64,000 nucleotides of DNA, taken from contig JAUMBQ010000005.1 in assembly GCA_032119595.1 (NCBI GenBank), forward strand, positions 30,328 to 94,327, given 5' to 3'. Shown here piece after piece: positions 5,813 through 52,000 of this stretch. This DNA comes from Solirubrobacteraceae bacterium (GTDB lineage Bacteria; Actinomycetota; Thermoleophilia; Solirubrobacterales; Solirubrobacteraceae). A model generated the notes under the pieces. It had not been told where the DNA came from. It saw only the letters and a program-made list of their open reading frames with translations, and did not search any database. A program made the translations under genes and the position numbers. Position 1 is the stretch's first letter, and every line of letters begins with the position of its first letter.

Positions 5813-7042
5813 GTGTCCTTCCCCACGTTCGCCACCCGGTTCATGGCGGCTGCCGCCGTCTCGGCAGCGATGTCGCTCGGCGCGCTGACCGCCGCCGCCC
5901 CGGCCGCACCCCACGCCACCCACGGCCCGTCGGCCAAGGCCGCCTCGTGGACGTGGCCGTCGCTGAAGTCGAGGCAGCCGCTGGTCATCGGTCACCGCGG
6001 CGCCTCCGGCTACCTGCCCGAGCACACGCTCGCGTCGTATTCGCTCGCCATCACGCAGGGGGCCGACTACATCGAAGCCGACCTCGTCGCGACCAAAGAC
6101 GGTCAGCTGATCTCGCGTCACGAGCCGAACTTGATCGGCACGACCGATGTCGCGAGCCGTCCCGAGTTCGCCAGCCGCAAGCGCACGCTGACGGTGGACG
6201 GCATCGCGGAGGAGGGCTTCTTCGCCTCCGACTTCACACTGGCCGAGATCAAGTCGCTTCGCGCGATCCAGCGCCTGCCCGAGCGCGGCCTGTTCTACGA
6301 CGGCCGCTACTCGATCCCGACGTTCGAAGAGGTCATCGAGCTCGCCAAGCGCCGGGCCCGCAGCACCGGCCGTGAGATCGGCGTCTATGCCGAGACCAAG
6401 CATCCGACGCTCCACAAGCAGCTCGGCCTGCCGCTGGAGCCCAAGGTCGTCGCGGTCCTCAAGAAGGAGCACTGGAACGTGCGCAGCGCCCCGGTCTTCC
6501 TTCAGAGCTTCGAGCCCGGCAGCCTGAAGGACCTCAAGAAGATCTCACCCGACAAGCGCGTCCAGCTCATCGATGCCGACGACGTGAACGCCGACGGCGT
6601 GATCCAGTTCGCGGCCCCGAGCGACCGCCCTTACGACTGGACCACCTCCGGCGATCCGGCGCTCACGGCCCGCACCTACGGCCAGATGGTCACCGACGCG
6701 GGCCTGGATGAGATCCGCAAGTACGCCGACGGCATCGGCCCGTGGAAGCCGTACATCGTGAGCACCAAGCTCGATCCGGCGCTCACGACGCCGGGAGCCT
6801 CGGCGCGGCGCACGATCGCCCCGACCGATCTCGTCGACCGGGCCCACCAGCGCGGACTGGTGGTGCATCCGTTCACGTTCCGTAACGAGCAGCGCTACCT
6901 GTCGGCCAGCTACGGCACGAACCCGGTCGAGGAATACCGCCAGTTCTACGAACTCGGCGTTGACGGTGTCTTCACCGACTACCCCGACACGGCCGTGACG
7001 GCGCGGACGCTGCTGGGGATCGACGCGCTGGCCGCAAACTAA
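5813..7042 (+). CDS. glpQ: secreted glycerophosphodiester phosphodiesterase (GlpQ-like)
   Basis: PLVIGHRGASGYLPEHTLASY...GADYIEADLVATKDGQLISRHE. GTG 5813 is preceded by AAGGAG (5798-5803) and followed by a signal-like segment FMAAAAVSAAMSLGALTAAAPAAP. The annotated 5171 start is antisense overlap with the SDR gene. Confidence 0.85.
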   Translation: MSFPTFATRFMAAAAVSAAMSLGALTAAAPAAPHATHGPSAKAASWTWPSLKSRQPLVIGHRGASGYLPEHTLASYSLAITQGADYIEADLVATKDGQLISRHEPNLIGTTDVASRPEFASRKRTLTVDGIAEEGFFASDFTLAEIKSLRAIQRLPERGLFYDGRYSIPTFEEVIELAKRRARSTGREIGVYAETKHPTLHKQLGLPLEPKVVAVLKKEHWNVRSAPVFLQSFEPGSLKDLKKISPDKRVQLIDADDVNADGVIQFAAPSDRPYDWTTSGDPALTARTYGQMVTDAGLDEIRKYADGIGPWKPYIVSTKLDPALTTPGASARRTIAPTDLVDRAHQRGLVVHPFTFRNEQRYLSASYGTNPVEEYRQFYELGVDGVFTDYPDTAVTARTLLGIDALAAN

Positions 7043-7065
7043 GCGGGCACGACGCCCCATCGTGA

Positions 7066-7102
7066 GCAGTCGCGGGGCCAGAGACCCAAGCTCCGCGACT
7101 GC
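7066..7102. terminator. GC-rich hairpin between convergent glpQ and the CNNM gene
   Basis: GCAGTCGCGG-N17-CCGCGACTGC, a 10-bp perfect stem with no clear U-tract. Confidence 0.45.
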
Positions 7103-7114
7103 AGCGACGCCCCT

Positions 7115-8158
7115 CTAGGACTCCGCGTTGAGCTCGTCGGTGATCTCGCCGACGAGCTCCTCGAGCACGTCTTCCAGGGCGACGAGACCGAGCAGTTCGC
7201 CGCCGCCGTCGGTCACGAGCGCGAGGTGCGCGCCGGTGCGCTGAAGCGTCGACAGGACGCCGCGGAGCGGGTCGCTAATCCCGACGCTCGGCAGGGGCCG
7301 CACGAGGTCGGAGGGCGTCGGCTCGGCGAGGGCCTCGTCGTCGGTGCGCAGGACGTCTTTGAGGTGCAGGTACCCGGAGAGCACGCCGTCCTGGTCCTCG
7401 ACCGGGAAGCGCGAGAAGCCGGTGCGGGAGGCCTCCAGCTCAAGCGCGCGCGGCGTCACGTGCACCGGCACGGTGACGACCTCGTCGAGCGGCAGCAGCA
7501 CGGTCTGCGCGGTGCGCTTCTCGAACTCAAGGGCGCCGGTGAGGAGCTGCTCCTCGCCGAGGTCCAGGAGTCCCTCGCGCCGCGACTCGGCGACGAGCCC
7601 CGCCACTTCGTCGCGCGTGAACGCGCTCGTCACCTCATCGCGAGGGGTGACGCGCAGGATCCGCAGGCAGAGATTCGCGAACGTGTTGAGGGCCACGATG
7701 AAGGGGCCGAGCAGCCGCACGACGACCACCAGCGGCGGGCCGAGGATGAGCGCGGCGCGGTCCGGCGCGGCGAGCGCGAAGTTCTTCGGGACCATCTCGC
7801 CGACCACGACGTGCAGATACACGACGATCGACAGGGCGATCACGAACGCTACGGGGTGCAGGAACGACTCCGGCATCCCCGCCGATGCGAACGGACCCTC
7901 GAGCAGGTGCGCGACGGCCGGCTCACCGATGGAGCCCAGGCCGAGCGAGCAGATCGTGATGCCAAGCTGCGCGCCCGCCATCATCAGCGACACGTTCTCC
8001 ATCGCGTAGAGCGTCGTGCGCGCCGAGCGCGAACCCTCGATCGCCTTCGGCTCAATGTTGGAGCGGCGCGCGGAAATCAGCGCGAACTCGGCGCCGACGA
8101 AGAACGCGTTGGCGAACAGCAGCAAGACCGCAAAGCCCACGAGGGTCAGATCGCTCAT
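7115..8158 (-). CDS. hemolysin-family / CNNM (DUF21-CBS) transporter-associated protein
   Basis: DUF21 N-terminus LLLFANAFFVGAEFALISARRS and GEMVPKNFAL, followed by a CBS pair. Confidence 0.9.
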   Translation of the reverse strand: MSDLTLVGFAVLLLFANAFFVGAEFALISARRSNIEPKAIEGSRSARTTLYAMENVSLMMAGAQLGITICSLGLGSIGEPAVAHLLEGPFASAGMPESFLHPVAFVIALSIVVYLHVVVGEMVPKNFALAAPDRAALILGPPLVVVVRLLGPFIVALNTFANLCLRILRVTPRDEVTSAFTRDEVAGLVAESRREGLLDLGEEQLLTGALEFEKRTAQTVLLPLDEVVTVPVHVTPRALELEASRTGFSRFPVEDQDGVLSGYLHLKDVLRTDDEALAEPTPSDLVRPLPSVGISDPLRGVLSTLQRTGAHLALVTDGGGELLGLVALEDVLEELVGEITDELNAES

Positions 8159-15738: not shown

Positions 15739-17109
15739 TCACACCAGCGCCGCGCGGTGCTGCCACGCCAGGCGCAGCAGGGCGTCGGCCGCGGGCGCGA
15801 GGTCGGCGATGGCCAGCGCCTCGCGGATGCCCTCGTCGGTGAACGGGAGGCCCCCGAAGGTGCCGTCGGGGCGGGTTTGGCCGACGAGGGTGCCTTCGCC
15901 GTTCTCGCGGGGCGGCTGGCCGATGATGCGGTCGAAGTCGGCCTCGTCGATCACGAGGACCGTGAGGAGTTCCAGCCAGTACGAGAGCGGGTCGAGGCCG
16001 AAGCCGACGAGCCACGGGCGGGCGGGGCCTGCCCGGCGAGCGGCTTCCAGGCCAGCCAGCGCCGGATCGGTCTCGTAGACGTCTGGGGCGACAGCGCGGT
16101 CGTCGATATGCCACTCGCCAAGGAGTTCCTCGGCCGACTCGCGCACGACGGTCCACCACGGCGCGGCATCGCGCGCGAAGACATCGGGGAGATCGTCGAT
16201 GGCGGGCTGGAACACGCCGGTCGGCACGACGTGCGTCTGGCCACTGACCATCCCGACGGTGCGGCGACGGTGGAGCCAGAACTCGGCGCTGCCATCCGCG
16301 GCACGGCGGAGGACCAGGGTGCTGACCGACGCGACGGTCGTGCGCGCCCCCAGGTCGAACGGATCGGGGACGGCATCGCGCAGGGGCACGAACCCGTCCC
16401 ATGCGCCGATCTCGGCCTCGACCTGTTCGGCGCGCTCGGCGCGCACGAGATCGCACTCCAGCGGCACCGCTTCGTCGAGCGCGGCGAAGTAGCTCGTGCG
16501 GCCGAGCTGCAGGTCGACCCGGTCCGGCGACATCTCAAGCCCCAGCACGCGGTAGCAGTCACGGTTCACGTACCGCCCGGCCGGCGGCTCCTCGAGATCG
16601 ACGATCGCGTCGCTGATGTGGAGATGGCGCGGCCCGAGCGACGTTCGAGGCCGCCACTCCACCAAGGCCTCCCGCAGCGCCTGGGCCACTGGCAACCCCG
16701 GGTCGTCGACGGCATCGACCACGACCTCGGCACCGTCCGGGTCGAGCCGCAGCGGTCGCGACAGCAACCAACGCTTGGGAACCAGCAGGCTGGTGTCTTC
16801 CCACCGCGGCCCCACGTCGCCGATCAGCCCGGCCGCCGCGCGAACCAGCGCGGGGCGCTCCTCACGCACGCGCGTGCGCTCAACCGTGAATCCGATCTGC
16901 GAGAACTCCACTTCGCGCGCGAGATCACGCTTTCGTTTCGCCTCCTCGCGCGTGTCGGCCTCGCCCTGAAGGCGGCGCTTCTCGGCGATCGCCTCCTGCG
17001 CGCGGCGGTACTGCACGATCGCGCCGTAGATCAGCGAGGCGATCACGATCGCGGCCAGCGCGAACCCGGCGATCGCGAGGCCGACAGACGCAACGGGAAC
17101 CAAGACCAT
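15739..17109 (-). CDS. membrane-anchored protein with a C-terminal Nudix-like fold
   Basis: The start is placed at MVLVPVASVGLAIAGFALAAIVIASLIYG (one TM helix), followed by a charged coiled segment. The later stretch VSTLVLRRAADGSAEFWLHRRR...VVPTGVFQP...WWTVVRESAEELLGE resembles Nudix beta-strands plus the REUXEEXGU half of the Nudix box. Confidence 0.6.
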   Translation of the reverse strand: MVLVPVASVGLAIAGFALAAIVIASLIYGAIVQYRRAQEAIAEKRRLQGEADTREEAKRKRDLAREVEFSQIGFTVERTRVREERPALVRAAAGLIGDVGPRWEDTSLLVPKRWLLSRPLRLDPDGAEVVVDAVDDPGLPVAQALREALVEWRPRTSLGPRHLHISDAIVDLEEPPAGRYVNRDCYRVLGLEMSPDRVDLQLGRTSYFAALDEAVPLECDLVRAERAEQVEAEIGAWDGFVPLRDAVPDPFDLGARTTVASVSTLVLRRAADGSAEFWLHRRRTVGMVSGQTHVVPTGVFQPAIDDLPDVFARDAAPWWTVVRESAEELLGEWHIDDRAVAPDVYETDPALAGLEAARRAGPARPWLVGFGLDPLSYWLELLTVLVIDEADFDRIIGQPPRENGEGTLVGQTRPDGTFGGLPFTDEGIREALAIADLAPAADALLRLAWQHRAALV

Positions 17110-17338
17110 GCCCTTGAGTCTGGCGCCTCGGCGGGTCGCACCCCGCACGCCCGCTCGCGTTGACGGGAATGCTCGTCAGCGATGCACACCCCGACCGGCT
17201 ATGACCTGCAACTGGGCACACCTGGATAGGCCGAACGTACAAGGCTCCGGCCTCAGGTTCGGCCGCACGCACAAACGTGCGGCTAGGCTCCTGTTGGAAG
17301 CTGTGGCCCTGCCTACTTCGTCCCCTGATCAAACCCCC

Positions 17339-19000
17339 ATGGCGTACGGCCCAGAACTCGGTGGACCCTTCGATGAAGTGTTCGCGCCCGGAGCGGAGCC
17401 GCACCCCCATACCGTCTCGCTCGCGCGAGAACTTGCCGCTCTTGGGCCGCAAGCACTCGCCGAAGCCGGCCATCGAAGAGACGCCATCTTCGTGCAGCAG
17501 GGCATCACGTTCGACGCGTCCGGCGAGGCCGGCCCCGTTCGTGATCGCCCCTTCCCGCTCGACCTCGTGCCGCGGATCCTGCCGGCCTCCGAGTGGGACC
17601 ACATCGAACGCGGCCTCGCGCAGCGCATCACTGCGCTGAACCGCTTCATCGACGACGTCTACCACGAGCGCGAGATCGTCCGTGCGGGCCTCGTGCCGTG
17701 GCAGCTCATCGTCAGCCGCTCGCACTTCGCCCGCGCCGTGCACGGCATCCGGCCACCAGGCGGCGTCTACTGCCACGTCGCCGGCTGCGACCTCGTCAAG
17801 GACAGCGACGGATCTTGGAAAGTCCTGGAAGACAACGTCCGCACGCCATCCGGCATCTCGTACGTCCTAGAGAACCGTGTCGCGATGACGCGCCTGGTCC
17901 CGCAGTTCTTCCGCGACTACCACGTGCGTCCGGTCGATCAGTACCCGCAGATCCTCGCCGCCGCGCTGCGGGCCGCCGCCCCGAGCGCCGAAGACGAAGC
18001 AACGATCGTCGTCTGGACGCCGGGCTCGATGAACTCCGCGTACTTCGAGCACTCGTTCATCGCACGGCAGATGGGCGTCGAGCTCGTCGAAGCCTCCGAC
18101 CTCGTCGTCCGCGACGACGTGGTCTACATGCGCACGACCGCCGGGCTGCGCCGCGTCCACGCGATCTACCGCCGCCTCGACGACGACTTCATCGACCCGC
18201 TTGAGTTCCGCCCCGACTCACTCCTCGGCGTCCCCGGCCTGATCCGGGCGTACCGCGCCGGCACCGTCGCAATCGCCAATGCCGTCGGCACGGGCGTCGC
18301 CGACGACAAAGCGATCTACCACTACGTGCCGGAGATGATCAAGTTCTACCTGGGCGAGGAGCCAATCCTCGACAACGTCCAGACGTACCTGATGGCCGAC
18401 CCCAAGCAGCTCGAGTACGCGCTCAGCCGCCGCAACGAACTCGTCTTCAAGCCGACGAACGAGTCCGGCGGCAAAGGCGTCTGTATCGGGCCCCGGACCT
18501 CGTCGGAGGCGCTCGATTCGCTCGCGGCCGTCATCCGGTCCAAGCCGGAGGACTGGATCGCGCAGGAGCTCGTGAATCTCTCGACCGTGCCGACGGCCGG
18601 GCCCGACGGCGTGCTCGCCCCGCGGCACGTCGACCTGCGCCCGTTCGCGGTGTTCGGCGAAACGATCAAGATCGTCCCGGGCGGGTTGACCCGCGTGGCG
18701 ATGGTCGAGGGATCGATGATCGTGAACTCCTCCCAGGGCGGCGGCTCCAAGGACACGTGGGTGCTCGAGGAGCAGGACGACGCGCCGCTGACGACCGAGG
18801 CGCTCTCGTCGCGCGTCATGTCGCCGACCATGCCGAACCTGCGGTACGGCAGCGAATGGCACGGCCAACAGCAGCAACAGCAACAGCAGTCGCCGACCGC
18901 ACGTGTCGACCAAACCGCCGCGACGGATCTGGCGGCGGGCTCGGATGACGAGCTGCCACCGCAGCGCCAAGCGTTCCCGACCGACGGAGGGCTTGCCTAG
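17339..19000 (+). CDS. circularly permuted type-2 ATP-grasp protein (COG2308 family)
   Basis: The start is at MAYGPELGGPFDEVF. Conserved blocks are GITFD, RPFPLDLVPRIL, VLEDNVRTPSGISYVLENR, VFKPTNESGGKGV and DLRPF. A ~75-aa low-complexity C-terminal tail contains Q8. Confidence 0.9.
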   Translation: MAYGPELGGPFDEVFAPGAEPHPHTVSLARELAALGPQALAEAGHRRDAIFVQQGITFDASGEAGPVRDRPFPLDLVPRILPASEWDHIERGLAQRITALNRFIDDVYHEREIVRAGLVPWQLIVSRSHFARAVHGIRPPGGVYCHVAGCDLVKDSDGSWKVLEDNVRTPSGISYVLENRVAMTRLVPQFFRDYHVRPVDQYPQILAAALRAAAPSAEDEATIVVWTPGSMNSAYFEHSFIARQMGVELVEASDLVVRDDVVYMRTTAGLRRVHAIYRRLDDDFIDPLEFRPDSLLGVPGLIRAYRAGTVAIANAVGTGVADDKAIYHYVPEMIKFYLGEEPILDNVQTYLMADPKQLEYALSRRNELVFKPTNESGGKGVCIGPRTSSEALDSLAAVIRSKPEDWIAQELVNLSTVPTAGPDGVLAPRHVDLRPFAVFGETIKIVPGGLTRVAMVEGSMIVNSSQGGGSKDTWVLEEQDDAPLTTEALSSRVMSPTMPNLRYGSEWHGQQQQQQQQSPTARVDQTAATDLAAGSDDELPPQRQAFPTDGGLA

Positions 19001-19981
19001 ATGCTGTCTCGAATTGCCCAGGAACTGTTCTGGCTCGGACGCAACGTCGCCCGCGCCGAGCACACGGCCCGCATGCTCGACGGCGTGTTTCAGGCCAGCC
19101 TGCAGAGCGCTGCCGACTCGTCCCGCTCGGGCTCGGCGGCCGTGCGGCTGGACTGGGAATCGATCGTCGCGATCATGGGCGCGGAGTCGGAGTCCGGCAA
19201 CGGCTCCGCCGACGTCCTGCGACGCATGACGCTCGACCAAACCGAGCCGGCCTCGCTGATTTCATGCGTCGGCCGCGCCCGCGAAGGCGCGCGCACCGTG
19301 CGTGATGTCGTGTCGGCGGAGATGTGGGAGGCGATCAACACCACGCACCTCACGCTCGCCGAGAGCGACGTGCCCGGTCGGTTCAGCATGGGTCCGTATT
19401 CGGTCTTCCAGTACGTGCGCGAACGCAGTGCGCTCTTCTGGGGCCTCACCAGCCGCACGATGCTGCGCGACGAGGCCAACGCGTTCCTGATCGCCGGCGG
19501 CCGGATCGAGTCCGCCGACATGGTCCTGCGCATGCTGCGCGTCGCCATGCCGGCGCCCGAAGCGGTCGAAGGCGAAGCCGTCGCCGATGCCAGCCTCCAA
19601 GACGGCCAGGCCCAGGCCCTCCTCCACGCCGTCGGTGGCTTCCAGGCCTTCCGTCGCGCGGTCCCGTCCCCTGCCCACGCCGGTCCCGTCGCGCGATTCC
19701 TACTCTACGAGCGCAACTATCCCGACTCGGTCGCCGCGTCCGTCGACGCACTCCACCGCGCCCTCAACAACGCCGACGACTCCCCGCGCCGCTCCGAGCC
19801 CGTCCTGCGGCTTAGTCGCCTCGGTGCCGACCTCGACTTCCGCGGTCGCGGCGCCTCGACCGACGCGAACCTCGCCGAGACGTGCGAGCTCGTGCAGTCC
19901 GAGCTGACCCTGATCGACAAGGACATCTCCGAGCGCTACTTCGCCGGGGCCATGCCCGCAGCCGGCCTGGTGATGGCATGA
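19001..19981 (+). CDS. alpha-E domain-containing protein (COG2307 family)
   Basis: The N-terminus MLSRIAQELFWLGRNVARAEHTARMLD is typical for this family. The ATG immediately follows the TAG of the ATP-grasp gene. Confidence 0.9.
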   Translation: MLSRIAQELFWLGRNVARAEHTARMLDGVFQASLQSAADSSRSGSAAVRLDWESIVAIMGAESESGNGSADVLRRMTLDQTEPASLISCVGRAREGARTVRDVVSAEMWEAINTTHLTLAESDVPGRFSMGPYSVFQYVRERSALFWGLTSRTMLRDEANAFLIAGGRIESADMVLRMLRVAMPAPEAVEGEAVADASLQDGQAQALLHAVGGFQAFRRAVPSPAHAGPVARFLLYERNYPDSVAASVDALHRALNNADDSPRRSEPVLRLSRLGADLDFRGRGASTDANLAETCELVQSELTLIDKDISERYFAGAMPAAGLVMA

Positions 19982-20856
19982 ACTACGAGATCCACTACCT
20001 CACCGAGTACAGCTACTCGGATGCCGTCACCGACAACCTCAATGCACTGCGCGTGCACCCGGCGACGACGTCCTCGCAGCGGTGCGACGAGTTCCACGTG
20101 CGGCTCGAACCGGAGGCACGTCTGCAGCGGCACGTCGACTACTACGGCACGCAGGTGCTGGAGTTCGGCATCGCCAAGCCGCACGATCACCTGACGATCG
20201 ACGTACGCGCCCGCGTGGTGACCTCGGAGCCGAAGCAGGCGCCGGAAGCCGACTGGGACGCGCTGCTCAGCGAGAGCTACATCGAGGTGGCCGGCGAGTT
20301 CCTCCTCCCACTCGGCGACGAGCCGGTCGCGCTCAACCATCAGCTCGTCGACGACGTGCGTGGCGCCACGCCGCTCGCGACCGTGCACAACCTCGCGAAC
20401 ATCATCGCCGACCGGTTCCGCTACGAACCCGGTGCCACGTACGTCGGCTCGACCGTCGACGACTTCCTCAATGCAGGCGCCGGTGTCTGCCAGGACTTCG
20501 CCCATCTCGGCGTGGTCCTGCTGCGCCGCAACGGGATCGCCGCCCGCTACGTGTCCGGGTATCTGTTCTCGACCGGCGCCGAGCAGGACGACGCCGCCGA
20601 GTCGGTCGAAGTCCAGACCCACGCCTGGGTCGAAGCGCTGCTGCCCGGGGACGCGGAGAACCCAGAACCGGTCTGGGTCGGCATCGACCCGACCAACCGA
20701 AAGCTTGCCGGAGAGACGCACGTGAAGATCGGCCATGGACGCCGCTACTCCGACGTCCCTCCGACCAAGGGCGTGTATTTCGGCTCAGCAGGAGCCGAGC
20801 TCACGGTGGCGGTCACGATGACTCGCCTCGACGCGGCTACGTCCGCCAGGACGTAG
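19978..20856 (+). CDS. transglutaminase-like family protein (COG1305)
   Basis: MNYEIHYLTEYSYSD (bacterial TGase N-domain), then GAGVCQDFAHLGVVLLRRNGIAARYVSGY (catalytic Cys) and HAWVE...GIDPTN (His/Asp). ATGA overlap with the alpha-E gene. Confidence 0.9.
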   Translation: MNYEIHYLTEYSYSDAVTDNLNALRVHPATTSSQRCDEFHVRLEPEARLQRHVDYYGTQVLEFGIAKPHDHLTIDVRARVVTSEPKQAPEADWDALLSESYIEVAGEFLLPLGDEPVALNHQLVDDVRGATPLATVHNLANIIADRFRYEPGATYVGSTVDDFLNAGAGVCQDFAHLGVVLLRRNGIAARYVSGYLFSTGAEQDDAAESVEVQTHAWVEALLPGDAENPEPVWVGIDPTNRKLAGETHVKIGHGRRYSDVPPTKGVYFGSAGAELTVAVTMTRLDAATSART

Positions 20857-20933: not shown

Positions 20934-23156
20934 TCAGGCGCGCAGGGTGAACGCCGTGGTCGTCGGGGTGCCTCCAGGCACGGCGATGGTGACGACGATC
21001 TTGAGGGTCCGGCGCGCCTTCAGCAGCCGGCGACCGTCGGCCGTGAGCTTCAGTACCACGGTGGGCGACTCGCCTTGGCTGGCTGTGACCGTCTTGGCCT
21101 TCACGACGGTCACGCGCTTCGCTTTGCTCCGAGCCGTCAGCTTGATCTTCGAGGCGGTGGACGCGCTGACCTTCACCTTGACGCCCGCTCCGGCCGCCAG
21201 CGCGAGCCGCACCGACGTGCCCTTGGCCGTGGCCCTGAGTTTCGTCGGAGTCGGCGCGACCGGCTTTGGCGTCGGGATCGGCGTCGGAGTTGGCTTGGGA
21301 GTTGGGTTGGGATCAGTCGTCGGCGACGGGACGATCGTGGGCTCGGGCGTCGGCGTTGGCGTCGGCGTCGGGTTCACGGGTGCGGTGAGGACCTGAATCG
21401 GCGCGGCGAGACTGCGCGACGGAAGGTCGTTCTGCGCGCCCGAGACGCACGAGGAGCCCGCGAGAAACCGCAGCGTGTGTTCCCCGGCGGTCGTGCCGAC
21501 TGGGATCGTGATCGTGCCTGTACCCGCGCCGCTGGCGTCAGCCTGGACGCACTCGACGATCGCGCCCGCGTCGACCTTCACGCCGACCTTCTGCCCGGCG
21601 GTCCCGTCTCCACGCAGGAACCCGGCCACGGTGAACGACACGACCGTCCCCGCGGGGACCGGCTCGGACGAGGCGAGGGTGACCTTGGCAGCGACCACTG
21701 CCTCGAACGCGAGGGCAACCGTCGGCGTCGGGCTGACGGCGGAGGCCGAGACCAGCGTCAGGACGTGATCGCCGAGCGCAGTCCCTGAGGCGACGGCAAC
21801 GTTGGCGATGACCCGCCCGTCGGCGGCGGCGGCCGTCAACGGCGTGCCAACGGCGACGCCATCGAGCCTGACCATGACGGATTCCCCGCTGGCGAAGCCC
21901 TCGCCCGTGATCGGCAACGTGCCGCCGACCGACGCGCGCGTGAACGGGCTCGCGACGAACGGTGCGGTGGCATTCACCACGAGCGCGTTCGACAACGCCA
22001 CGAGCCGCGGCATCGGATCCGTCACGAGCGGTGGCACGCACGCCGTGCCGCCCGCCACGAACACCGACTTGGTGCCCGCGGATTCATCCGCCGGGACGGT
22101 GCCGGTGATCAGGGCGCCGCCCGTCGCGTCCGTCTGACCGCATCCGATGAGCTTGTCGCCCGGCTGAAGCACGAGCCCGACCCGCTGGCCCGCGCCGGCG
22201 ATCCCGACGAAGCCGTCGGCGCGAACCGCGATGGTGTTCCCAGGCCGCACCGACGGCGTCAGCAACGTCGCTGACTGAGCGACCCGGTTGAGCGCCGTCG
22301 AGCGACTGACACCACCGGCCGTGAACTGCAGCGTCTTGCCGCCCGGCGACCCCGGCGGGAGCGTGAGCGCCGCCGTGAAGTCGCCGGACGCGCTCGTCGA
22401 GAGGTCGGTGAGCGGGCTGCTCCCGAGGTTCTTCGCCGTCACGGGGGTGCCGTCGAGCGCGACCGCGACCGACGCGCTCGGCCCCCAGCCGAGCCCCTTC
22501 GCGGTCACGGTGCCCGGCGTCGCCGGGAATGTGGTGCCCGGGTAGAAGGTGCCCTCCGCATTGGTGAAGCCGAGCGTCAGCGCGTCGGACGCCGTAACCC
22601 ACGCCTTGCCCGTGATCGGCACCGTCGTGTTGAGGGTGCCGCTCGTGTTCACGCCCTCGGTGCTGAAGGCGCCGGAGAGCACCCGGAACCAGTGCTGGCC
22701 GGCGTTTGGCGCCTCGCCCGGACCGGCCTTGGGGATGTTCAGTGGCAGGTCGACCCACCCCGACACGTCACCGTCGGCTTCGGCTGGGAACGCGGCGACG
22801 AGTTCCTCCTCGATCTGGAAGCGGTTCGCATCGTTCTCGTCCGGGACGCCGCCGGCCAGCGGCCCCCAATCCCGGAACACGTCGTTGTCGTTCCACTTGA
22901 GCACGAACACCGGCAGGCCTTTGCCGACCCCCGGATTCGTCCCGACGAACCCGGTCCCGGTGAACGTGACGCGCTGCGTCGACGGCTCGCCGGCCACGAC
23001 CGTCCCGGTGCTGAACGTGACGCTGGCTCCGCTCGGCGCGGTGTACGTGAGTGGGGCAGCGTGCGCCGACGCGGGCGACGCGAACGCCGCAGCCGTGGCG
23101 AGCAACGCCGCCGTCCGAAGGCCGCGCGCCCGTGAGATTCCTGTGCGTGGAGTCAT
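20934..23156 (-). CDS. secreted multi-Ig-like-repeat surface protein with PT-rich linker and Lys-rich C-terminal module
   Basis: Signal peptide MTPRTGISRARGLRTAALLATAAAFASPASAHA|AP. Repeated modules of the form GFxxGxxVxVxLDG. Linker NPTPTPTPTPEPTIVPSPTTDPNPTPKPTPTPIPTPKP. The C-terminal ~105 aa are Lys/Arg-rich and beta-type. Confidence 0.8.
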   Translation of the reverse strand: MTPRTGISRARGLRTAALLATAAAFASPASAHAAPLTYTAPSGASVTFSTGTVVAGEPSTQRVTFTGTGFVGTNPGVGKGLPVFVLKWNDNDVFRDWGPLAGGVPDENDANRFQIEEELVAAFPAEADGDVSGWVDLPLNIPKAGPGEAPNAGQHWFRVLSGAFSTEGVNTSGTLNTTVPITGKAWVTASDALTLGFTNAEGTFYPGTTFPATPGTVTAKGLGWGPSASVAVALDGTPVTAKNLGSSPLTDLSTSASGDFTAALTLPPGSPGGKTLQFTAGGVSRSTALNRVAQSATLLTPSVRPGNTIAVRADGFVGIAGAGQRVGLVLQPGDKLIGCGQTDATGGALITGTVPADESAGTKSVFVAGGTACVPPLVTDPMPRLVALSNALVVNATAPFVASPFTRASVGGTLPITGEGFASGESVMVRLDGVAVGTPLTAAAADGRVIANVAVASGTALGDHVLTLVSASAVSPTPTVALAFEAVVAAKVTLASSEPVPAGTVVSFTVAGFLRGDGTAGQKVGVKVDAGAIVECVQADASGAGTGTITIPVGTTAGEHTLRFLAGSSCVSGAQNDLPSRSLAAPIQVLTAPVNPTPTPTPTPEPTIVPSPTTDPNPTPKPTPTPIPTPKPVAPTPTKLRATAKGTSVRLALAAGAGVKVKVSASTASKIKLTARSKAKRVTVVKAKTVTASQGESPTVVLKLTADGRRLLKARRTLKIVVTIAVPGGTPTTTAFTLRA

Positions 23157-23189
23157 TGACGATCCTGAATGCCTGAGGGTTCGGACCCG

Positions 23190-25007
23190 CTACTTGCGGG
23201 TGGCCTTGAGCGTCGCCTTGACGGCCTTGGTCGACCGCTTGGACCGGTCGGCCGACGGCGAGAACTTCACGGTGAGCGTGCCGCGGATCGCCTTCTTGCT
23301 CTTCAGCTTCGCCTTGCCGTAGTCGGTCTGCTTGAGCGCGAAGCTGATCGACCCCGCCTTCGTGGCGGTGCCCTCGCCACGAGCGATGGTGCGTCCGCCA
23401 GCGGTCAGCGTGGCGCTCAGGGTGCCGGCGGCCGGCGCCTCGACGTTCACCTTCGTGCCGACGAGCCTCAGCGACTCCAGTGCGATCGAGAGTTCGCTGA
23501 GGCCGCTGCCGACCGGGCCCTGCAAGCCAGCCGAACCAGCCGAACCGGCCGGGCCGGCCGGGCCGACCGCGCCATCGGCGCCCTTCGACCCGGCCGCCCC
23601 GTCAGCGCCCTTGGCGCCAACCTCGCCCTTGTCGCCCTTGGGCAGATCAGCCGGTCGCAGCACGTTGACGGCCTGCACCTGCGCGGCACCGGTCGTCGTG
23701 CCCGTCGTCATGCTCGACACGTAGGCGGTGCCGGTCTCACTATCGACGTCGACATCGAGCGCGTTGCCCGTCGTCGGAATGCCATGGACCCACGTGTCGG
23801 TGGTCGCATCGATGACCGACAGAACGCGCGAACTGAGATCCGACGAGTAGACGAGCCGGCGCTCGGGATCGACCGCGATGGCGTTCGGCGAGCCAGTCGC
23901 GTCGATCGTCTTGACCACCTTGCGGAAGGTGGCGGGGTGCGCCGGATCAAGGTCGACGACCGAGATGGTGCGGGCACCGGAGTTGGCCGTGTAGAGCTTC
24001 TTGCCAACCGGATCAAAGCCCGGACGCGCATTCTTGCCGACGCCCTTGATCACCGCGACGACCGCGGCGGCGTTGTTCTCCTTCACGAGCGGAGCGCTCG
24101 TGTTGACCAGATCGAGGTCGACCACGCGGACGACATCGCTGTTCGGGACAGCCGGATCGGCGTCGGTGGCATTGAACGTGCCGACGTACAGCAGATTGTT
24201 CGCCGTGTCGATTGCGAGGCCAACGGCCCCGGGCACCGGGATCGTGGCCTCGACGGCGCGCGTCTCGGTGTTGATCTGCGAGACGACGCCGCCCGTGGCG
24301 TTGTAGCCCGCGACGTACGCCTTGTGACGGGTGCTGTCGACGACGGGTGTGCGGGCCCGGACGAGCCCGGTCGCCGAGGCGGGCAAAACGTGCGCGTTGC
24401 TGACGGTCTCTGACTGCTTGAAGATCGCGACGCTGCTCGTGCGGGTCTGCACCGTGACGATCGTCGGGTCTGGGGCACCGTCGGGATTCGTCGTCGCGAC
24501 ATCGACGGCGACGCCGTAGGGGTTGTTCGAGGTCTGCGTGGTGTTTGCCGTCGCGATACCGGTCGTTGCACCACTTCCGGTCGTCGGCGGGGTCGTGGGC
24601 AGCGTGTACGCGCCGCCGGGCGTCGAACCGTCGGCGCCGAAGAGGTTCGCGAAGTTGAAGTTCTTCAGGAAGCCTTTGGTGTCGAGATCGAGCTGAACCA
24701 CCTTGGCGGTGTTGGCCTGCGCCACGACGTCGTAGTAGCTGCTCGAGAAGCCCGTCGCTAGAGCGGTGTTCGGCAGGAAGTGACGCTCGAACATCGCTGA
24801 GCGCGCGTCGGCGGCGTAGAGGCGGCGGTTCAGCGGGTCGATGCCGAGCTCGTACCCCTGGATCACACCGGTGGTGATGTCCTGAACCGATGAAGACCAG
24901 CCCGGAGCCGGCGTCGGCGCGGCGAAGGCCGACGGTGCCATGGCCAGCAGCGAGGTGGTGCCGGCGCAGACGCAGAAGAGGCGGCGAGCAGCAGACGAAT
25001 GAAGCAA
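23190..25007 (-). CDS. secreted YVTN-type beta-propeller protein with collagen-like GXY tract and Lys-rich C-terminal module
   Basis: Probable TTG start at 25007 with GGGAG 7 nt upstream and the signal RRLFCVCAGTTSLLAMAPSAFA|AP. Repeats of the type KAYVAGY / LLYVGTF / KLYTANS / LVYSSDL / TAYVSSM. There are 14 GXY triplets (GDKGEVGAKGADG...GLQGPVG). Confidence 0.75.
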   Translation of the reverse strand: MLHSSAARRLFCVCAGTTSLLAMAPSAFAAPTPAPGWSSSVQDITTGVIQGYELGIDPLNRRLYAADARSAMFERHFLPNTALATGFSSSYYDVVAQANTAKVVQLDLDTKGFLKNFNFANLFGADGSTPGGAYTLPTTPPTTGSGATTGIATANTTQTSNNPYGVAVDVATTNPDGAPDPTIVTVQTRTSSVAIFKQSETVSNAHVLPASATGLVRARTPVVDSTRHKAYVAGYNATGGVVSQINTETRAVEATIPVPGAVGLAIDTANNLLYVGTFNATDADPAVPNSDVVRVVDLDLVNTSAPLVKENNAAAVVAVIKGVGKNARPGFDPVGKKLYTANSGARTISVVDLDPAHPATFRKVVKTIDATGSPNAIAVDPERRLVYSSDLSSRVLSVIDATTDTWVHGIPTTGNALDVDVDSETGTAYVSSMTTGTTTGAAQVQAVNVLRPADLPKGDKGEVGAKGADGAAGSKGADGAVGPAGPAGSAGSAGLQGPVGSGLSELSIALESLRLVGTKVNVEAPAAGTLSATLTAGGRTIARGEGTATKAGSISFALKQTDYGKAKLKSKKAIRGTLTVKFSPSADRSKRSTKAVKATLKATRK

Positions 25008-33988: not shown

Positions 33989-35452
33989 CTACTTGCCGCT
34001 GAGCTTGTAGGGAACCTGCGAGGTGACCGTGTTCCCGAGGGTGTCCTTCACGGTCGTGACGAGCGTCAGCTTGACGGGCTTGCTGCCCTTGATTGCCTTC
34101 AGGGCCTTGCGACCTTCCTTGGTCGAGAAGATCGAGACCTTGACGGTCTCGCCCGGTGCCGTGCTGGTCGCGGTGCCGGTGCCGACCACGATCGGCGCCT
34201 TCGGAGCCTTCTTCTTCTTTTTCTTCGGAGCGAAGGCGCTCTTCGAACCCTTCTTATCCTTGGCGACCGGCAGCAGCAGCTGCTGCGTCACGGTGCCGGG
34301 TTCATCGAGCGTGATGAATGAGAACAGACCGCTCTTGAGGAACGACTTGAGGGTCGTGCTGGGCGCACCGAGGTCGTTCTTCTTGATGACCGGAGCTGCC
34401 ACGTCCACCGGGGGCGCCGGCGGAACCACACCGACCGGCACGGTCGTCGTGACCGTGAGGGTGGTGGTCACGTCTCCGGCGGTCGTCTGGCGGACTTCGC
34501 GGTAGGTGATCAGATCGCCCGCCTGGATAGGCGTCCCGAAGTTGACGCCGTACGCCGTCGCGGTCGCGCTGGTGAGGCGCCCATGGCCGACGGCCTCGTA
34601 TGGCGCACCGGGCACACCGGTCCGCGCGGTGCGGCATTCCGCGTCGCGGTCGAGGTAGTAGGTCTGACCAGCGGGTGCCGGGATTGCCGGCGGTGCCGGC
34701 GCCACGTCCGCCACGGCGACCGACTTGTAGAGCCCGTAATCGAAGTAGTAGCAGGTGCCCACGAAGTCACTCGTGTCCGACCCAGTCGGCTTTGCCCTCC
34801 AGGTGTAGACCCCGGGCGTAACACCGTGACGGAGGACCGCACGAGCGACACGGCGCTCGAGTGTCGCCGTGACTTCGGTGCCTTCAGCCGTTCGACCGAT
34901 CGTCGCGTCGGGGCTCCCGATGACACTCGAGATCACGGCGGGCGCTGCGGTCACCGTGGTGTCGAAGACGGTCGCCTTGGTGTCGCTGCGGTAGACCCGA
35001 AGCAGATCACCCGGAACCAGCGAGATCGGAATCGACGTACCGCTGTCGTCCTCCGTCTTGAGCGCGGCGCCGCCTCGAAGCTGCTCGAGGTTGCCGCAGC
35101 TGAAGGACGGACGCTTGATCGCCGGCGTCACGAAGACGCCGTTCTTGTCGTAGTTCGAGTTGTAGGTGCCACAGATCCCCTCGGCAGGCTCGACGTACCC
35201 CGGGGCGGCAAACTCAGCTTCCGTGGGGTCCTGGCTCACGTACCCGTCGTACGAGCCGGTGGGAAGTCGGCCCGGGTTCGGCGCCGGCTGGCCCCCGTCG
35301 TACCAGTAGTCGGCCGGGAAGGTGGAGTAGCTGATGGACTTGTACAGCGGCGACGCTTCGGCCGGTGCCGCAAACGTGAGCGCGCTTGCCGACAACGCCA
35401 GAGCGAAGCCAGCGCGACGCAGACGCGCCGCCGGGTGGTGGGAAAGGGTCAT
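33989..35452 (-). CDS. secreted protein with poly-Lys linker and Lys-rich C-terminal module
   Basis: The start is at MTLSHHPAARLRRAGFALALSASALTFAAPAEA|SP (ATG 35452). The protein contains APKKKKKKAPKAP. Its C-terminus GETVKVSIFSTKEGRKALKAIKGSKPVKLTLVTTVKDTLGN is like the C-termini of the 20934 and 23190 products. Confidence 0.75.
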   Translation of the reverse strand: MTLSHHPAARLRRAGFALALSASALTFAAPAEASPLYKSISYSTFPADYWYDGGQPAPNPGRLPTGSYDGYVSQDPTEAEFAAPGYVEPAEGICGTYNSNYDKNGVFVTPAIKRPSFSCGNLEQLRGGAALKTEDDSGTSIPISLVPGDLLRVYRSDTKATVFDTTVTAAPAVISSVIGSPDATIGRTAEGTEVTATLERRVARAVLRHGVTPGVYTWRAKPTGSDTSDFVGTCYYFDYGLYKSVAVADVAPAPPAIPAPAGQTYYLDRDAECRTARTGVPGAPYEAVGHGRLTSATATAYGVNFGTPIQAGDLITYREVRQTTAGDVTTTLTVTTTVPVGVVPPAPPVDVAAPVIKKNDLGAPSTTLKSFLKSGLFSFITLDEPGTVTQQLLLPVAKDKKGSKSAFAPKKKKKKAPKAPIVVGTGTATSTAPGETVKVSIFSTKEGRKALKAIKGSKPVKLTLVTTVKDTLGNTVTSQVPYKLSGK

Positions 35453-39574: not shown

Positions 39575-39609
39575 GACGGCGATCTTGACGCGTTGGCAGC
39601 CGCGCCACA

Positions 39610-43584: not shown

Positions 43585-43637
43585 GCCGCTCACGCCACCG
43601 CCCGCGCTTATGGCGCGACCGGGCCCGCGAATGCCGC

Positions 43638-48965: not shown

Positions 48966-49035
48966 GCGGACCTTGCGGCGGCGCAACGTGCTCGGTCAAC
49001 GCGGACCCTGCGGCGGCCCGGCGTACTCAGTCAGC
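48966..49035. repeat. 35-bp tandem duplication spanning the stop codon of the giant gene
   Basis: GCGGACCTTGCGGCGGCGCAACGTGCTCGGTCAAC (48966-49000) and GCGGACCCTGCGGCGGCCCGGCGTACTCAGTCAGC (49001-49035). Confidence 0.6.
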
Positions 49036-52000
49036 GGCGACGCAGCGCCAAACGCACCGTGCGCGAGGCGCCGTCGCCCACCACCCGGATCGCGACCGAC
49101 CGCTGACCGCACGACGACCGCACCGTGATCGTGGACGAACGTGCGCTGCCGCCCTTGGACCGAGCGCGCAGCCTGGCCAGTCGCTGGCGTCCCTGCCACA
49201 CCGTCGCCGCGACGTCCGTCGCGAGTCGATACCGAACTGGCCCACAGGCGCCGGCACGCCGCAGCTGGCCGATCGGCTTCAGAGCGATCACGACCGGCGC
49301 GATCGCTCGTACGCGAACGGCCACCGGCAAGCTGGTGCCGGTCCCGCCTGGCGGCCCGGCGAGCGCGCGCAGGACGTGTCGACCGACCGGCAGTCGCGAC
49401 AGGTCCAGCGACGATCCACGACCGACCACGATCATCCGTTTGCCGGTCGCCCAGCGGATGCCGCGACCAGGCAGCGCGTCGCCGGTCGGCGTCTTCGCCG
49501 TCGCGGTCAGCACCTGTCGCTCGCCCTTGCGAACGAGGTAGCTGGTCTCGGCGTCGTTGATCTCGACACCAGGCGGCCCGCCGCTGAAGGTGAGCTCGCC
49601 GCTCACCGCGGTTCGGGTGCTGAACCCGTCGGTCACCGTCACCCGCACGCGCCCACGACCGCCCGGCGCCGCTGGCAGCACGCCGCCGGAGATCACGTGA
49701 CGGTCACCGCCGCGGCCGCCCGCGAGGACCTTCCACGTTTCGCCACGGTCGCTCGACACCTCGATCGTCGCGAGCGGACGGTCGCCCTCTGGGTCGTCGG
49801 TGCGCCACCGCACCTCAAGGAGGCCGCGCCTGGTCACGCGAGTACCAGCAGCCGGTGCGGTCAACGCGACCGTCGGCGCTGCGCCAGCGTCAAGCTGAGC
49901 GAGGACGTGTCCACCATCTACGGCGACCGCCTCTATCCGCGTGACACCGTCGCCCGGAAGGACGACGGAAGCCGCAATCGCGATGCTGCCGTCCGGTGCC
50001 GCCTCAGCGTCCTCGGGCTGGGTGGCCACGCGAGCGCTGGCCACCAGCGATCCGTCGGCGCGTCGCGCGTCGATGCGCAGCGGCCCGTCCGGAGCGGCTG
50101 ATGCAGCCGCGGCGAGTTCAACCTCCGTCCGCTCGGTCGGCGTGACCGTGAAGCGCGTGAACTGCGTGTCGCGAATGCCGATGCTCACGGCGATCGCGGG
50201 CTTCAGCGGGCTCGCCGGTGCTTTGGCCTGAGTCGTTCGGGCTGGGTTTGCCCGGCGCCCGACGGGCCGGCTGCCTCGGTTGGCCGCGCTGAACGGAGCG
50301 CCGCGATCCGGCCTGCTCCCCGACTCGCCCGGCGTCGCGAGGCGCCCCAGCCGCAACGGCACGCCCAAGAACGACCGCCGGCTTGAGATGCCGACCGGGT
50401 CGTCGGCAAGCGGTGCGAGCGCGTTGCGGAGCAGTGCGTAGGCGTATGGGCACGACGGGAGGATCCCGAACCGGTAGGTCGACAGCACCGTCGGCTTGCA
50501 CGGCAACGCCACACCGTTCGTGTACCCGCGATTGACCGCATCCGGGGTGCGCTCGGTGTATTCCTGGCTACCGCGCACCATCGCGTTCCAGTACCGGGTG
50601 CTCCACCAGGTCCCGTTCCCCGGGGCAAGCGCCGCGCCGAGCGTCCCACGTGGCACGCCGCCACACGCCGAGGTGACGTCTCGAAGCTCCGCGCCGCCAC
50701 AGCCGGCCGCGAGCGGCGGCCGGTTCTCCACTCGCCGGTAGCCCGCAGGATGACCGTCGCCAGGAGAACGCTCGATGGCCTCCCCGCCGACGTAGCCGAA
50801 ATGATCGGGTTCCCAGTTCGCTGCCCAGACCGCACCACCTCGACCCGACGCCGGGCGTAGCCCCTGCATCTGGGCCAGCGCACGACCGATCGACGGCGCG
50901 CTCGCCGGCTCCCCTGCACGAAGACTCACGACGCTCTGCATGTCGGGCGACGGCGCTGAGTTCGACGAGGGAAGCCGGTCGCTGCGCTCGATGAAGGCTG
51001 CGGCGCGCTGCCCGCCCCCAGCAGGCGACCCCACCCCCGGCACGCATCGGCCCGCTTGATAGGCGCAGCGGTCCGCGATGGCGATCGCAGGACTGTCAGC
51101 CGGTCGACCGGCCGGCGCGTCGCCGCGGTTCAAACGACGGTCGACGAGATTTCGGGCGTCGGCGAGTACCGAGGCGGCGTCAAGCTGGTTGCTCGGCGCG
51201 AGGTACGCGAACGTTCGCGGTGCGTCGAGATAGAACGGGACCGGGGAGAAACTGGACAGACGCGACTGCAACGTTTGCGAGGCGCGGTACTCCAGCTGCC
51301 CACGGTCTGGCGGCAGGACCGACACCACTGAGGCCCGCACCGGCTCCATTTGCGCCACGGCTGGATAGCGAATCGTGATCCGGTCGTTGTCGCGAGCGCA
51401 GTTCTCACATTGCGCAGGCACGCCTGGCGTCTCAGGAACCGAGTCGCGCATCGACGGAGAGGTGTGTGAGGCGAGGATGAACTCGTACGGCCGGGTGAGC
51501 TTGATCGAGAACGCGTACGGCACAGCGCGGTCGCGCATCTCTGGACTCACGCCGACGGCGTTGGTAATGGGAACCCGGTCCGGCTGGTAGAGCAGCCGGG
51601 TGATCGGGACTTCGCTTCGCGAGTTGTTCTCGTCGGCTTGGCGCTCTCCCTCGGCTCGCTCGTAGCGCCCGGACAGGTAGACGCCCGGCGACGGCGCGCT
51701 GGTGCCGCGCCCGCCGTGGGCGACCACCCATACGAGCACGATGCCCATGCCCTTGGAGAGCACGACCCCGTCGTAGAGCGCGTCGCGGGCTGGCGGCCCA
51801 GGCCAGGCCGTGGAGGTCTGCCGCTGAACGCCCTGCGTGATCTCCATGCCGACGACGTCGTAGTCCGGGCGGACTGGCTTGGGCGGGAGCACCTGGATCG
51901 AGACGGGCACGTCGAGCGACAGACCGAGCCCGTTCGAAACGCGGTACAGGACGGTGTCGACCCCCGGCGTGTCGCGCACCTTCCGGGTGACGCTGATCGT

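Follow-up and report, generated by a model that had tools for sequence, protein, structure and literature searches.

Three unrelated secreted proteins of a Patulibacter-like actinobacterium share a cationic C-terminal domain of approximately 100 residues, predicted to be a beta-sandwich. The proteins, named A, B and C here, are encoded in the window, which is the whole stretch of 64,000 nucleotides that was analyzed. We propose that the three proteins end in an unnamed domain family that retains secreted proteins electrostatically on the envelope; to this statement as a whole we give an even chance.

Architecture of proteins A, B and C

The first-pass annotation had described four open reading frames whose products end in a common tail. 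Translation confirmed the four reading frames as described, and each product (A to D) possesses a signal-peptide-like N-terminus. The common tail was confirmed for A, B and C, but not for D, in searches with an HMM built from proteins outside the window (outside-only HMM) and in comparison with shuffled sequences. The parts of A, B and C are as follows.

20934..23156, minus strand: gene A, 740-aa secreted protein (translation)
23058-23156, minus strand: signal peptide of A
21243..21383, minus strand: Pro/Thr-rich linker of A, residues 592-638
20937..21242, minus strand: cationic module of A, predicted Ig-like, residues 639-740 (outside-only HMM)
21009-21044, minus strand: helix motif TADGRRLLKARR of the A module
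23190..25007, minus strand: gene B, 605-aa secreted protein (translation)
24912-25007, minus strand: signal peptide of B
23502..23636, minus strand: collagen-like G-X-Y stalk of B, residues 458-502 (Pfam Collagen)
23193..23501, minus strand: cationic module of B, predicted Ig-like, residues 503-605 (outside-only HMM)
23292-23327, minus strand: helix motif TDYGKAKLKSKK of the B module
33989..35452, minus strand: gene C, 487-aa secreted protein (translation)
35354-35452, minus strand: signal peptide of C
33992..34345, minus strand: cationic module of C, predicted Ig-like, residues 370-487 (HMM and hhalign)
34088-34123, minus strand: helix motif TKEGRKALKAIK of the C module
34196..34267, minus strand: 24-residue Lys-rich insertion VAKDKKGSKSAFAPKKKKKKAPKA in the C module (score after deletion)

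Protein A is composed of a signal peptide, an acidic passenger, the Pro/Thr-rich linker and the module. Its passenger matched no Pfam or NCBIfam domain and is 33-36% identical to module-bearing proteins at two other loci, L004 and L008. In the same databases, the linker gave low-complexity matches only (internalin K, TonB and PARP). In B, the signal peptide is followed by a YncE/YVTN-like beta-propeller, the collagen-like stalk and the module. The start codon of B is TTG at 25007, with GGGAG 8 nt upstream. The stalk matched Pfam Collagen with E=7e-7, above the gathering score, and orthologues of B are present at locus L002 (a Patulibacter MAG; 66% identity) and at L003 (48%). The passenger of C contains no domain recognizable in Pfam or NCBIfam, and an exact copy of protein C was found in the Logan assembly of SRR22423862. 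By BLAST, the passengers of A, B and C share nothing, in agreement with the earlier description of these proteins as otherwise unrelated.

Relationship of the three tails

The outside-only HMM was constructed from 22 non-window proteins, among which there is no orthologue of B, and has 97 positions. When it was run against all 588 six-frame ORFs of the window, B scored 75.2 bits (E=1e-22), A scored 25.2 bits over profile positions 7-92 of 97 (E=4e-7) and C scored 21.4 bits in its C-terminal half (E=6e-6); the best ORF after these three had E=0.05. As isolated tails, A, B and C scored 31.3, 80.8 and 25.9 bits, respectively. Among 2000 composition-matched shuffles per tail, the maximum was 11.5 bits (9.8 bits for the shuffles of A), and reversed tail sequences failed against the HMM. 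Moreover, the C module was aligned to the family by hhalign with E=1e-4, and phmmer related the A tail to tails at L004, which lies in another genome, with E=2e-11 and 3e-8.

The first-pass annotation had placed a Pro/Thr-rich, collagen-like or poly-Lys linker ahead of the module. This is correct for A (Pro/Thr-rich) and B (collagen-like). The poly-Lys segment of C, however, is an insertion inside the module and not a linker; with this segment deleted, C scored higher, reaching 34 bits across positions 9-92 of the profile. The module is about 100 residues long rather than 50-60, a full Ig-like sandwich according to the models described below, and therefore the module of C extends to approximately 34345 and not to 34180.

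Several simpler comparisons gave less. Pairwise BLAST of the tails gave only weak matches (E=0.06-0.1 against a database of four sequences), an HMM of the three window tails retrieved its own members alone and was uninformative, and when the three or four tails were aligned by themselves with MAFFT, the C-terminal half of the alignment could not be trusted. Six-frame ORFs totaling about 99,000 residues contain the core motif T..G[RK]..LK..[KR] exactly three times, once each in A, B and C at 33-45 residues from the C-terminus, but this count is not independent evidence because the pattern was derived from the A, B and C sequences themselves.

From the profile searches, it is nearly certain that the tails of A, B and C are homologous and form one domain family. 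That they are alike merely as Lys/Arg/Thr/Val-rich beta-strands of a high-GC genome is an explanation to which we give almost no credence: the weak BLAST pairing and the sizeable HMMER bias term (17 bits for A) are in its favor, but the three tails surpass the best of their shuffles by 15-70 bits, reversal abolishes the match, the alignments to the profile are collinear across about 85 positions, and the equally basic tail of D scores just 0.4 bits. On the sequence evidence, compositional bias is refuted as the explanation of the A, B and C tails and stands for that of D.

The tail of D had been regarded as an Arg-rich variant of the module.

49034..49303, minus strand: Arg-rich C-terminal tail of D (1679-aa protein, 49031 gene), not a detectable module member

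Its score of 0.4 bits against the outside-only HMM was equalled or beaten by 513 of 2000 of its own shuffles, hhalign gave a probability of 0.3%, and a broadened profile did not match it. By these tests, D is not a detectable member of the family. A helix-less variant of the module does exist (L008 12332-14263, 23.6 bits), and we considered whether D possesses this variant, as do relatives with DUF5122 propellers; this was rejected, as the helix-less-subtype profile gave no match. Protein D is rich in Arg along its whole length, with 131 Arg residues outside the tail.

Predicted fold of the module

According to the structure models, the module is an Ig-like beta-sandwich of about 100 residues with one short amphipathic helix. 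The AlphaFold2 (AF2) model of the B module (pLDDT 78.9, pTM 0.64) contains seven strands and a helix at 53-61. The model of the A module, which was built on a thinner alignment, has a pLDDT of 75.6, with strands and a helix at 68-77, and the order of strands, helix and strands is identical in the two models. The predicted helix corresponds to the T-x-x-G-R/K-x-x-L-K motif; it follows the fifth long strand and precedes the last hairpin. The Lys-rich insertion of C is positioned in the loop of the hairpin that the second and third long strands form, and in the alignments of A-type modules, the loop at this site is also extended with basic residues.

As a structural class, the models are Ig-like (a beta-sandwich of approximately seven strands). 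Foldseek aligned them with the PapD N-domain, CopC, SoxY, GbpA and GH2 Ig-like domains at a TM-score of about 0.6 and 7-19% identity. There was no match at E<=0.001, the best values being 0.0096 and 0.018, and no specific superfamily can be assigned because every Foldseek E-value is at least 0.0096. A PDB sequence search gave chance-level matches only (for example, OspA at E=0.09). As modeled, the fold is a sandwich of a generic kind, and none of its structural neighbors is informative. The module resembles Big_x, FlgD_ig, PKD, PapD-like and CopC/SoxY-type sandwiches at this level (TM-score of about 0.6), but differs from them in its extra helix, its extreme charge and its obligate-like terminal position.

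Comparison with known domains

The module was compared with Pfam-A (2025 copy) and NCBIfam release 20. No model was significant for the module in the four proteins and 27 family members; the best sub-threshold Pfam matches were Biotin_lipoyl in one member (E=0.0078) and the Ig-type Big_3_5 (E=0.017), and several Big_x families showed weak sub-threshold similarity. Thus, the earlier view that the module is not LPXTG, SLH or the C-terminal domain (CTD) of the type IX secretion system (T9SS) is borne out, and no characterized Pfam, NCBIfam or PDB family matches it.

No LPXTG-like motif and no Gram_pos_anchor match were found in A, B, C or D, and the maximum 19-residue Kyte-Doolittle mean is 0.75-1.24, under the threshold of about 1.6. 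The combination of motif, hydrophobic segment and basic tail that makes up a sortase- or exosortase-type signal was not seen in them. From the known repertoire of non-covalent wall-binding domains, which has been cataloged (PMC5817068), SLH, LysM, SH3b/GW, WxL, CWB1, CWB2, SPOR and SLAP were unmatched in the four proteins and the 27 members.

Members of the family

An exhaustive HMMER search of 1.84 billion representatives yielded 40 matches at E<=1e-3, 36 of which are genuine. The remaining four, multi-repeat proteins (P0012, P0016, P0019 and P0021), were judged spurious; they have no terminal module and contain many weak stretches, each of at most 13 bits, or none at E<=1e-3 locally. In all 36 relatives, the module is single and ends 0-20 residues (mostly 0-9) from the C-terminus. 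A, B and C likewise each carry one C-terminal module on a signal-peptide-bearing protein. There is one exception: the L004 protein at 6958-8148 carries an internal module followed by a cupredoxin domain, and therefore the terminal position is not obligatory. A signal-peptide-like start was recognized by inspection in 17 of the 17 members with a complete N-terminus.

Among the passengers of the relatives are propellers (YVTN or DUF5122 with collagen, and one of the PD40 type), an S8 subtilase, a GH44 enzyme and several proteins of unknown function. Their linkers are collagen, Pro/Thr-rich or Gly-rich, and most B-type relatives have a collagen stalk directly ahead of the module, as does B. The genes are clustered: related loci contain 4-7 copies of the module per approximately 20 kb, the module being present on seven of nine consecutive secreted-protein genes at L004 and on four genes within 17.5 kb at L008. 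Co-occurrence of a dedicated sortase or secretion gene had been envisaged. None adjoins any copy in the window and five other loci, where the neighbors either encode unrelated housekeeping functions or carry the module themselves.

The family is fast-evolving and is found in Solirubrobacterales-type genomes; relatives with a name come from a Patulibacter MAG and a Solirubrobacteraceae MAG, and this range is based on only three named MAG records. A word-indexed protein search gave nothing with tail A, one close relative with tail B and eight matches with a 27-sequence profile; its members have diverged too far to be seeded by 5-mers.

Charge of the module

The net charge of the module is +20 in A (pI 12.0), +15 in B (pI 10.9) and +17 in C. 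Each contains 20-28 Lys/Arg residues and next to no Asp/Glu, and the passengers of the three proteins have pI values of 5.2-5.6. The family is defined by the outside-only HMM; A, B and C also show its charge pattern, namely a net charge of at least +13, very few acidic residues and an acidic passenger. Across the family, the modules have a pI of 10.5-12, a net charge of +13 to +31 and 0-4 acidic residues, and the passengers mostly have a pI of about 4-5 (4.1-5.2). The ratio of Lys to Arg varies from 19:3 to 0:28. The charge is kept while the identity of the basic residue drifts, which argues for selection on the charge itself. The conserved columns of the alignment are the hydrophobic core, Gly or basic residues; neither an aromatic platform nor a conserved polar motif for binding is visible in it.

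Proposed function

The charge, the position and the architecture make non-covalent, electrostatic retention at the surface a plausible function of the module. After export via Sec or Tat, the polycationic module would attach to anionic envelope polymers without a covalent bond and chiefly through its charge; candidate ligands are teichoic or teichuronic-type wall polymers, an acidic polysaccharide and membrane lipids. The linker may act as a wall-spanning stalk that pushes the acidic passenger outward, and where the stalk is collagen, the three modules brought together in a trimer would increase avidity.

Two known kinds of surface protein are comparable. The first comprises the LPXTG-anchored collagen-like proteins Scl1 and Scl2 and Gram-positive surface proteins with Pro-rich wall-spanning regions, in which a signal peptide, a globular passenger, a collagen or Pro/Thr-rich stalk and a C-terminal anchoring element follow one another. 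The NCBIfam SclA/SclB and internalin K models matched stalk and linker regions of our proteins, the Scl collagen models matching B. This parallel in architecture supports retention, although the module differs from the Scl element in being a folded basic domain with no LPXTG and no hydrophobic segment. The second is the S-layer proteins of Lactobacillus, whose cationic wall-binding regions bind lipoteichoic acid (PMC5993097). Here too, a strongly basic end is joined to an acidic or neutral protein, and retention, putative in the case of the module, is independent of sortase, with a charge complementary to anionic wall polymers. Unlike these and other wall-binding regions, the module is a single sandwich, predicted to be Ig-like, rather than tandem repeats, and it has no sequence kinship with them.

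More tentatively, with somewhat less than an even chance, the module may be the main sortase-independent surface-display device of the Solirubrobacterales, with dozens or hundreds of copies per genome docking on a lineage-specific anionic wall polymer. To our knowledge, almost nothing is known of the cell surface of Thermoleophilia and Solirubrobacterales, and our literature search found no described surface-anchoring domain from Thermoleophilia. Both groups are abundant in soil (PMC6544083, PMC11737030). One recognizable tail on a large and varied share of the secretome would allow direct prediction of the surface proteome of Solirubrobacterales. The module would also be a handle for identifying the wall polymer bound, and it might serve as a small display tag that attaches itself. 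If it is a display device, it would represent a class of cell-wall-binding domain that is new, and a display tag that is portable, from widespread, barely studied soil bacteria. In any case, an unclassified domain family is added, for which neither Pfam-A nor NCBIfam holds a model in the versions given above.

The strong positive charge equally suits binding of DNA, exopolysaccharide or soil minerals. The module may instead adsorb to the surroundings and not to the cell's own wall, fixing exo-enzymes and adhesins in a biofilm or in soil through extracellular DNA, acidic exopolysaccharide, humic material or clay. We consider this unlikely, although it is the strongest competitor. The charge data fit it equally, degradative enzymes (the S8 protease and GH44) are among the passengers, the structural neighbors include GbpA and accessory domains of glycosidases that are carbohydrate-binding or Ig-like, and the hosts seem to be MAGs of soil or environmental origin. 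However, many passengers are propellers or unknowns rather than enzymes, a stalk with a terminal element is the architecture typical of cell-anchored proteins, and the lack of an aromatic platform or conserved polar motif in the alignment does not favor substrate binding.

Slightly less probable is a generic Ig-like spacer or oligomerization domain with no role in targeting, whose basic charge offsets acidic passengers or steadies a collagen trimer. The generic fold and the weak Big_x similarities would be expected of such a domain, and the B-type module directly follows the collagen stalk, which is the expected site of a trimerization nucleus. Ig spacers, however, are usually internal and in tandem, whereas all 36 relatives have just one module, at the terminus; collagen is missing from A, C and most members not of the B type; and the charge excess (+13 to +31) is similar on strongly and weakly acidic passengers.

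Compared with these alternatives and with surface retention, a C-terminal signal for sorting, secretion or folding, read and then removed by dedicated machinery as in the case of the T9SS CTD or the pre-peptidase C-terminal domain, is improbable. The T9SS CTD is an Ig-like sandwich of about 80-100 residues found within one lineage at the extreme C-terminus of diverse secreted cargo, in many copies per genome. The module is likewise a single, predicted Ig-like, C-terminal, multi-copy domain of 90-100 residues on very diverse, unrelated secreted proteins, at the extreme C-terminus in all 36 database relatives. In contrast to the CTD of Bacteroidota, it is polycationic, what is conserved in its sequence is mainly charge and not a set of fixed recognition motifs, one copy is internal (L004), and no PorU/PorV-type partner was seen near the module genes, nor any conserved partner gene adjoining copies in the six loci. 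The Por_Secre_tail models (TIGR04183, TIGR04131 and PF18962) were unlisted even at E<=10 for the 27 members and at E<=0.1 for the four full proteins, and no member matched another CTD model. The relatives belong to Actinomycetota, which are not known to have a T9SS, and the proteins already bear N-terminal signal peptides. If the module were nevertheless a sorting signal, it would indicate that monoderm actinobacteria possess a step of export or processing as yet undescribed.

Three of four secreted proteins share a C-terminal domain

The first-pass annotation had assigned one basic C-terminal template, in an Arg-rich variant for D, to four otherwise unrelated secreted proteins, here called A to D.

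Secreted proteins compared
20934-23156, minus strand: protein A, 740 aa
23190-25007, minus strand: protein B, 605 aa; TTG start with GGGAG 8 nt upstream
33989-35452, minus strand: protein C, 487 aa
49031-54070, minus strand: protein D, 1679 aa

All four N-termini are signal-peptide-like. Searches with Pfam and NCBIfam models identified a collagen-like stalk in B behind a propeller of YncE/YVTN type, and delta-60/DUF5122 propeller repeats in D; neither A nor C has a recognisable domain, and the four tails have zero coverage. D also possesses a PT-rich linker and several Ig-like domains. The passengers (the regions upstream of linker and tail) show no BLAST similarity to one another, which agrees with the description of these proteins as otherwise unrelated.

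When the tails were compared by BLAST in a four-sequence database, matches were weak (E=0.06-0.1) and the D tail had none. The motif T..G[RK]..LK..[KR] has just three matches among approximately 99,000 residues of six-frame window ORFs, in each case 33-45 residues before the end of A, B or C; because the pattern was derived from these same sequences, this count is not independent evidence. An exhaustive HMMER search of 1.84 billion representatives with a profile of the B tail and its one close relative gave 40 proteins at E<=1e-3. Four of these, long repetitive proteins in which many stretches matched weakly, were discarded. An independent profile of 22 members, with none from the window and no B orthologues, was then run against all 588 six-frame window ORFs.

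Scores of the four tails against the 22-member profile (588 ORFs; isolated tail; best of 2000 shuffles)
B: 75.2 bits, E=1e-22; isolated 80.8 bits; shuffles 10.4 bits
A: 25.2 bits, E=4e-7, nearly the whole profile; isolated 31.3 bits; shuffles 9.8 bits
C: 21.4 bits, E=6e-6, C-terminal half; isolated 25.9 bits; shuffles 11.5 bits
D: no match; isolated 0.4 bits; shuffles 11.5 bits, 513 scoring at least as high as the tail

The next ORF had E=0.05, and the reversed tails failed against this profile. The D tail gave an hhalign probability of 0.3% and was matched neither by a broadened profile nor by a profile of the helix-less subtype described below. Moreover, the Arg-richness of D spans its full length (151 R, 18 K), whereas the tails of A, B and C are Lys-rich. 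Therefore, the observation holds for three tails, with significant profile similarity, and not for D. Judged from their sequences, the tails of A, B and C are a real homologous C-terminal domain, as yet unnamed.

Predicted structure of the module

The module is approximately 100 residues long rather than 50-60. Fold prediction, which the first-pass annotation had proposed, was performed by AlphaFold2 with family alignments as input and gave a beta-sandwich for both A (pLDDT 75.6, pTM 0.61) and B (seven strands, pLDDT 78.9, pTM 0.64). Near the end of both models, a strand is followed by a short helix and a terminal hairpin: the template G-x-x-x-V-x-L-x-x-T-x-x-G-R/K-x-x-L-K corresponds to the fifth long strand and the short helix, and the previously described Gly turn and basic strand to the last hairpin. 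The poly-Lys stretch of C is preceded by the N-terminal half of its module (LKSGLFSFITLDEPGTVTQQLLL). When the 24-residue Lys-rich segment was removed, the score of the C tail rose to 34 bits over profile positions 9-92. Therefore, the poly-Lys stretch is a loop insertion within the module and not, as had been thought, a linker before it. The corresponding loop in A-type modules carries a basic extension.

The tails of A to D have no hydrophobic segment and no LPXTG-like motif. A scan of 27 family members against Pfam/NCBIfam models at E<=10 gave scattered sub-threshold matches only (Big_6, Big_8, Big_3_5, FlgD_ig and others), with no SLH, LysM, SH3b/GW, WxL, CWB, SLAP, Por_Secre_tail or Gram_pos_anchor; the earlier statement that the tails are not assignable to LPXTG, SLH or the T9SS CTD is thus upheld. 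A profile search of PDB sequences gave chance-level matches, and a catalogue of known wall-binding domains (PMC5817068) has nothing resembling the module. The Foldseek neighbours, none at E<=0.001, were generic sandwiches (PapD N-domain, CopC, SoxY, GbpA and GH2 Ig-like domains; TM ~0.6, identity 7-19%). Thus, the module is an unclassified family with a predicted Ig-like fold.

The wider family and related loci

Each of the 36 genuine relatives has one module; the distance between its end and the C-terminus is 0-9 residues in most of them and never exceeds 20. It is preceded by collagen G-X-Y repeats or by Pro/Thr/Ala-rich or Gly-rich segments. Among the passengers are propellers (YVTN, DUF5122 and one of PD40 type), two enzymes (an S8 subtilase and a GH44 glycosidase) and several unknowns. 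Every member with a complete N-terminus has, by inspection, a signal-peptide-like start. Module net charge is +13 to +31 (pI 10.5-12) and passenger pI mostly 4.1-5.2. K:R ratios span 19:3 to 0:28, acidic residues number just 0-4, and in 15 of the 96 match columns basic residues account for 50% or more. In these alignments, the conserved property is charge and not residue identity.

The family is lineage-restricted and locally abundant. For example, two loci from other genomes, L004 and L008, have the module in seven of nine consecutive secreted-protein genes and in four genes within 17.5 kb, respectively. Homologues of A (passenger identity 33-36%) and B (35-42%) adjoin in three different genomes (window 20934-25007, L004 8228-11926 and L008 3749-7494), sharing one orientation in the window and diverging in the other two loci. 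This adjacency suggests that the A and B surface proteins are functionally linked. The 396-aa secreted product of L004 6958-8148, with a cupredoxin-like domain at each end and a long poly-Pro linker before the module, has the only internal copy seen (residues ~221-310); in its paralogue (L004 12040-13014) the module is terminal. Therefore, the terminal position is a strong rule but not an absolute one. DUF5122-propeller proteins at L008 12332-14263 and L004 14882-16783, distant kin of the D N-terminus, carry a variant module in which a short Lys-rich turn replaces the helix; against the family profile, the copy in L008 reaches 23.6 bits. The D tail resembles neither form.

Proposed function

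These proteins would have a surface-protein layout, in which an acidic passenger destined for export is followed by an extended stalk and then by a polycationic domain at the end. This layout is like that of wall-anchored proteins of monoderm bacteria, but those have an LPXTG signal in place of a folded cationic domain. The closest functional precedent available comes from Lactobacillus S-layer proteins, whose cationic wall-binding region binds lipoteichoic acid (PMC5993097). The layout, the conservation of charge rather than of residues and this precedent lead us to favour a predicted function in which anionic envelope polymers retain the proteins non-covalently, by electrostatic attraction; in collagen-stalked members, trimer avidity may add to retention. 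An anchoring role is reasonable but unproven. Alternatively, the same polycationic domain might adsorb to extracellular polyanions or soil surfaces, or the Ig-like module might serve only in structure or oligomerisation. A signal for sorting or folding that is cleaved off, by analogy with the T9SS CTD, is disfavoured, since no conserved partner gene, such as the dedicated sortase or secretion gene first envisaged, lies beside any module copy in the loci examined (window and related), which argues against sorting machinery encoded nearby.

Genomic surroundings

The window is ordinary chromosome (G+C ~70%) and encodes lepA, leuS, comEC, murJ and methylmalonyl-CoA mutase with meaB. Searched with protein B, the nearest genome records are MAGs of a Patulibacter sp., at 66% identity, and of "Actinomycetes", at 48%; a Solirubrobacteraceae MAG supplies the database protein nearest to the B tail. 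Judged from these matches, the host is a Solirubrobacterales-like actinobacterium. Protein A has no record in public data; therefore, the organism is barely sampled. A sequence identical to C is present on a 1977-nt contig (L001) of Logan assembly SRR22423862.

Other features of the window
17108-20856, plus strand: conserved row of three genes (circularly permuted ATP-grasp, alpha-E domain protein, transglutaminase-like) just upstream of gene A
37901-39610, minus strand: secreted protein with a Lys-rich segment directly after the signal peptide (AAKKLKCKAG...KAKVAKTKTGKPKCAKPPKLK)
43462-43595: 62-nt element present twice in tandem, with 94% identity and 72-nt spacing
62483-62556, minus strand: tRNA-Ala (anticodon GGC), the sole RNA gene that Rfam and ARAGORN detected in the window

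In the 37901-39610 product the basic stretch is N-terminal, not C-terminal. An 853-aa plus-strand ORF overlapping this gene has no Pfam match; the minus-strand gene appears to be the real one and the plus-strand ORF spurious. Each 62-nt copy has an inverted repeat (GAGCGGCC...GGCCGCTC) flanking an AT-rich loop; the copies sit where no convincing genes are seen and are possibly a REP-like intergenic repeat.
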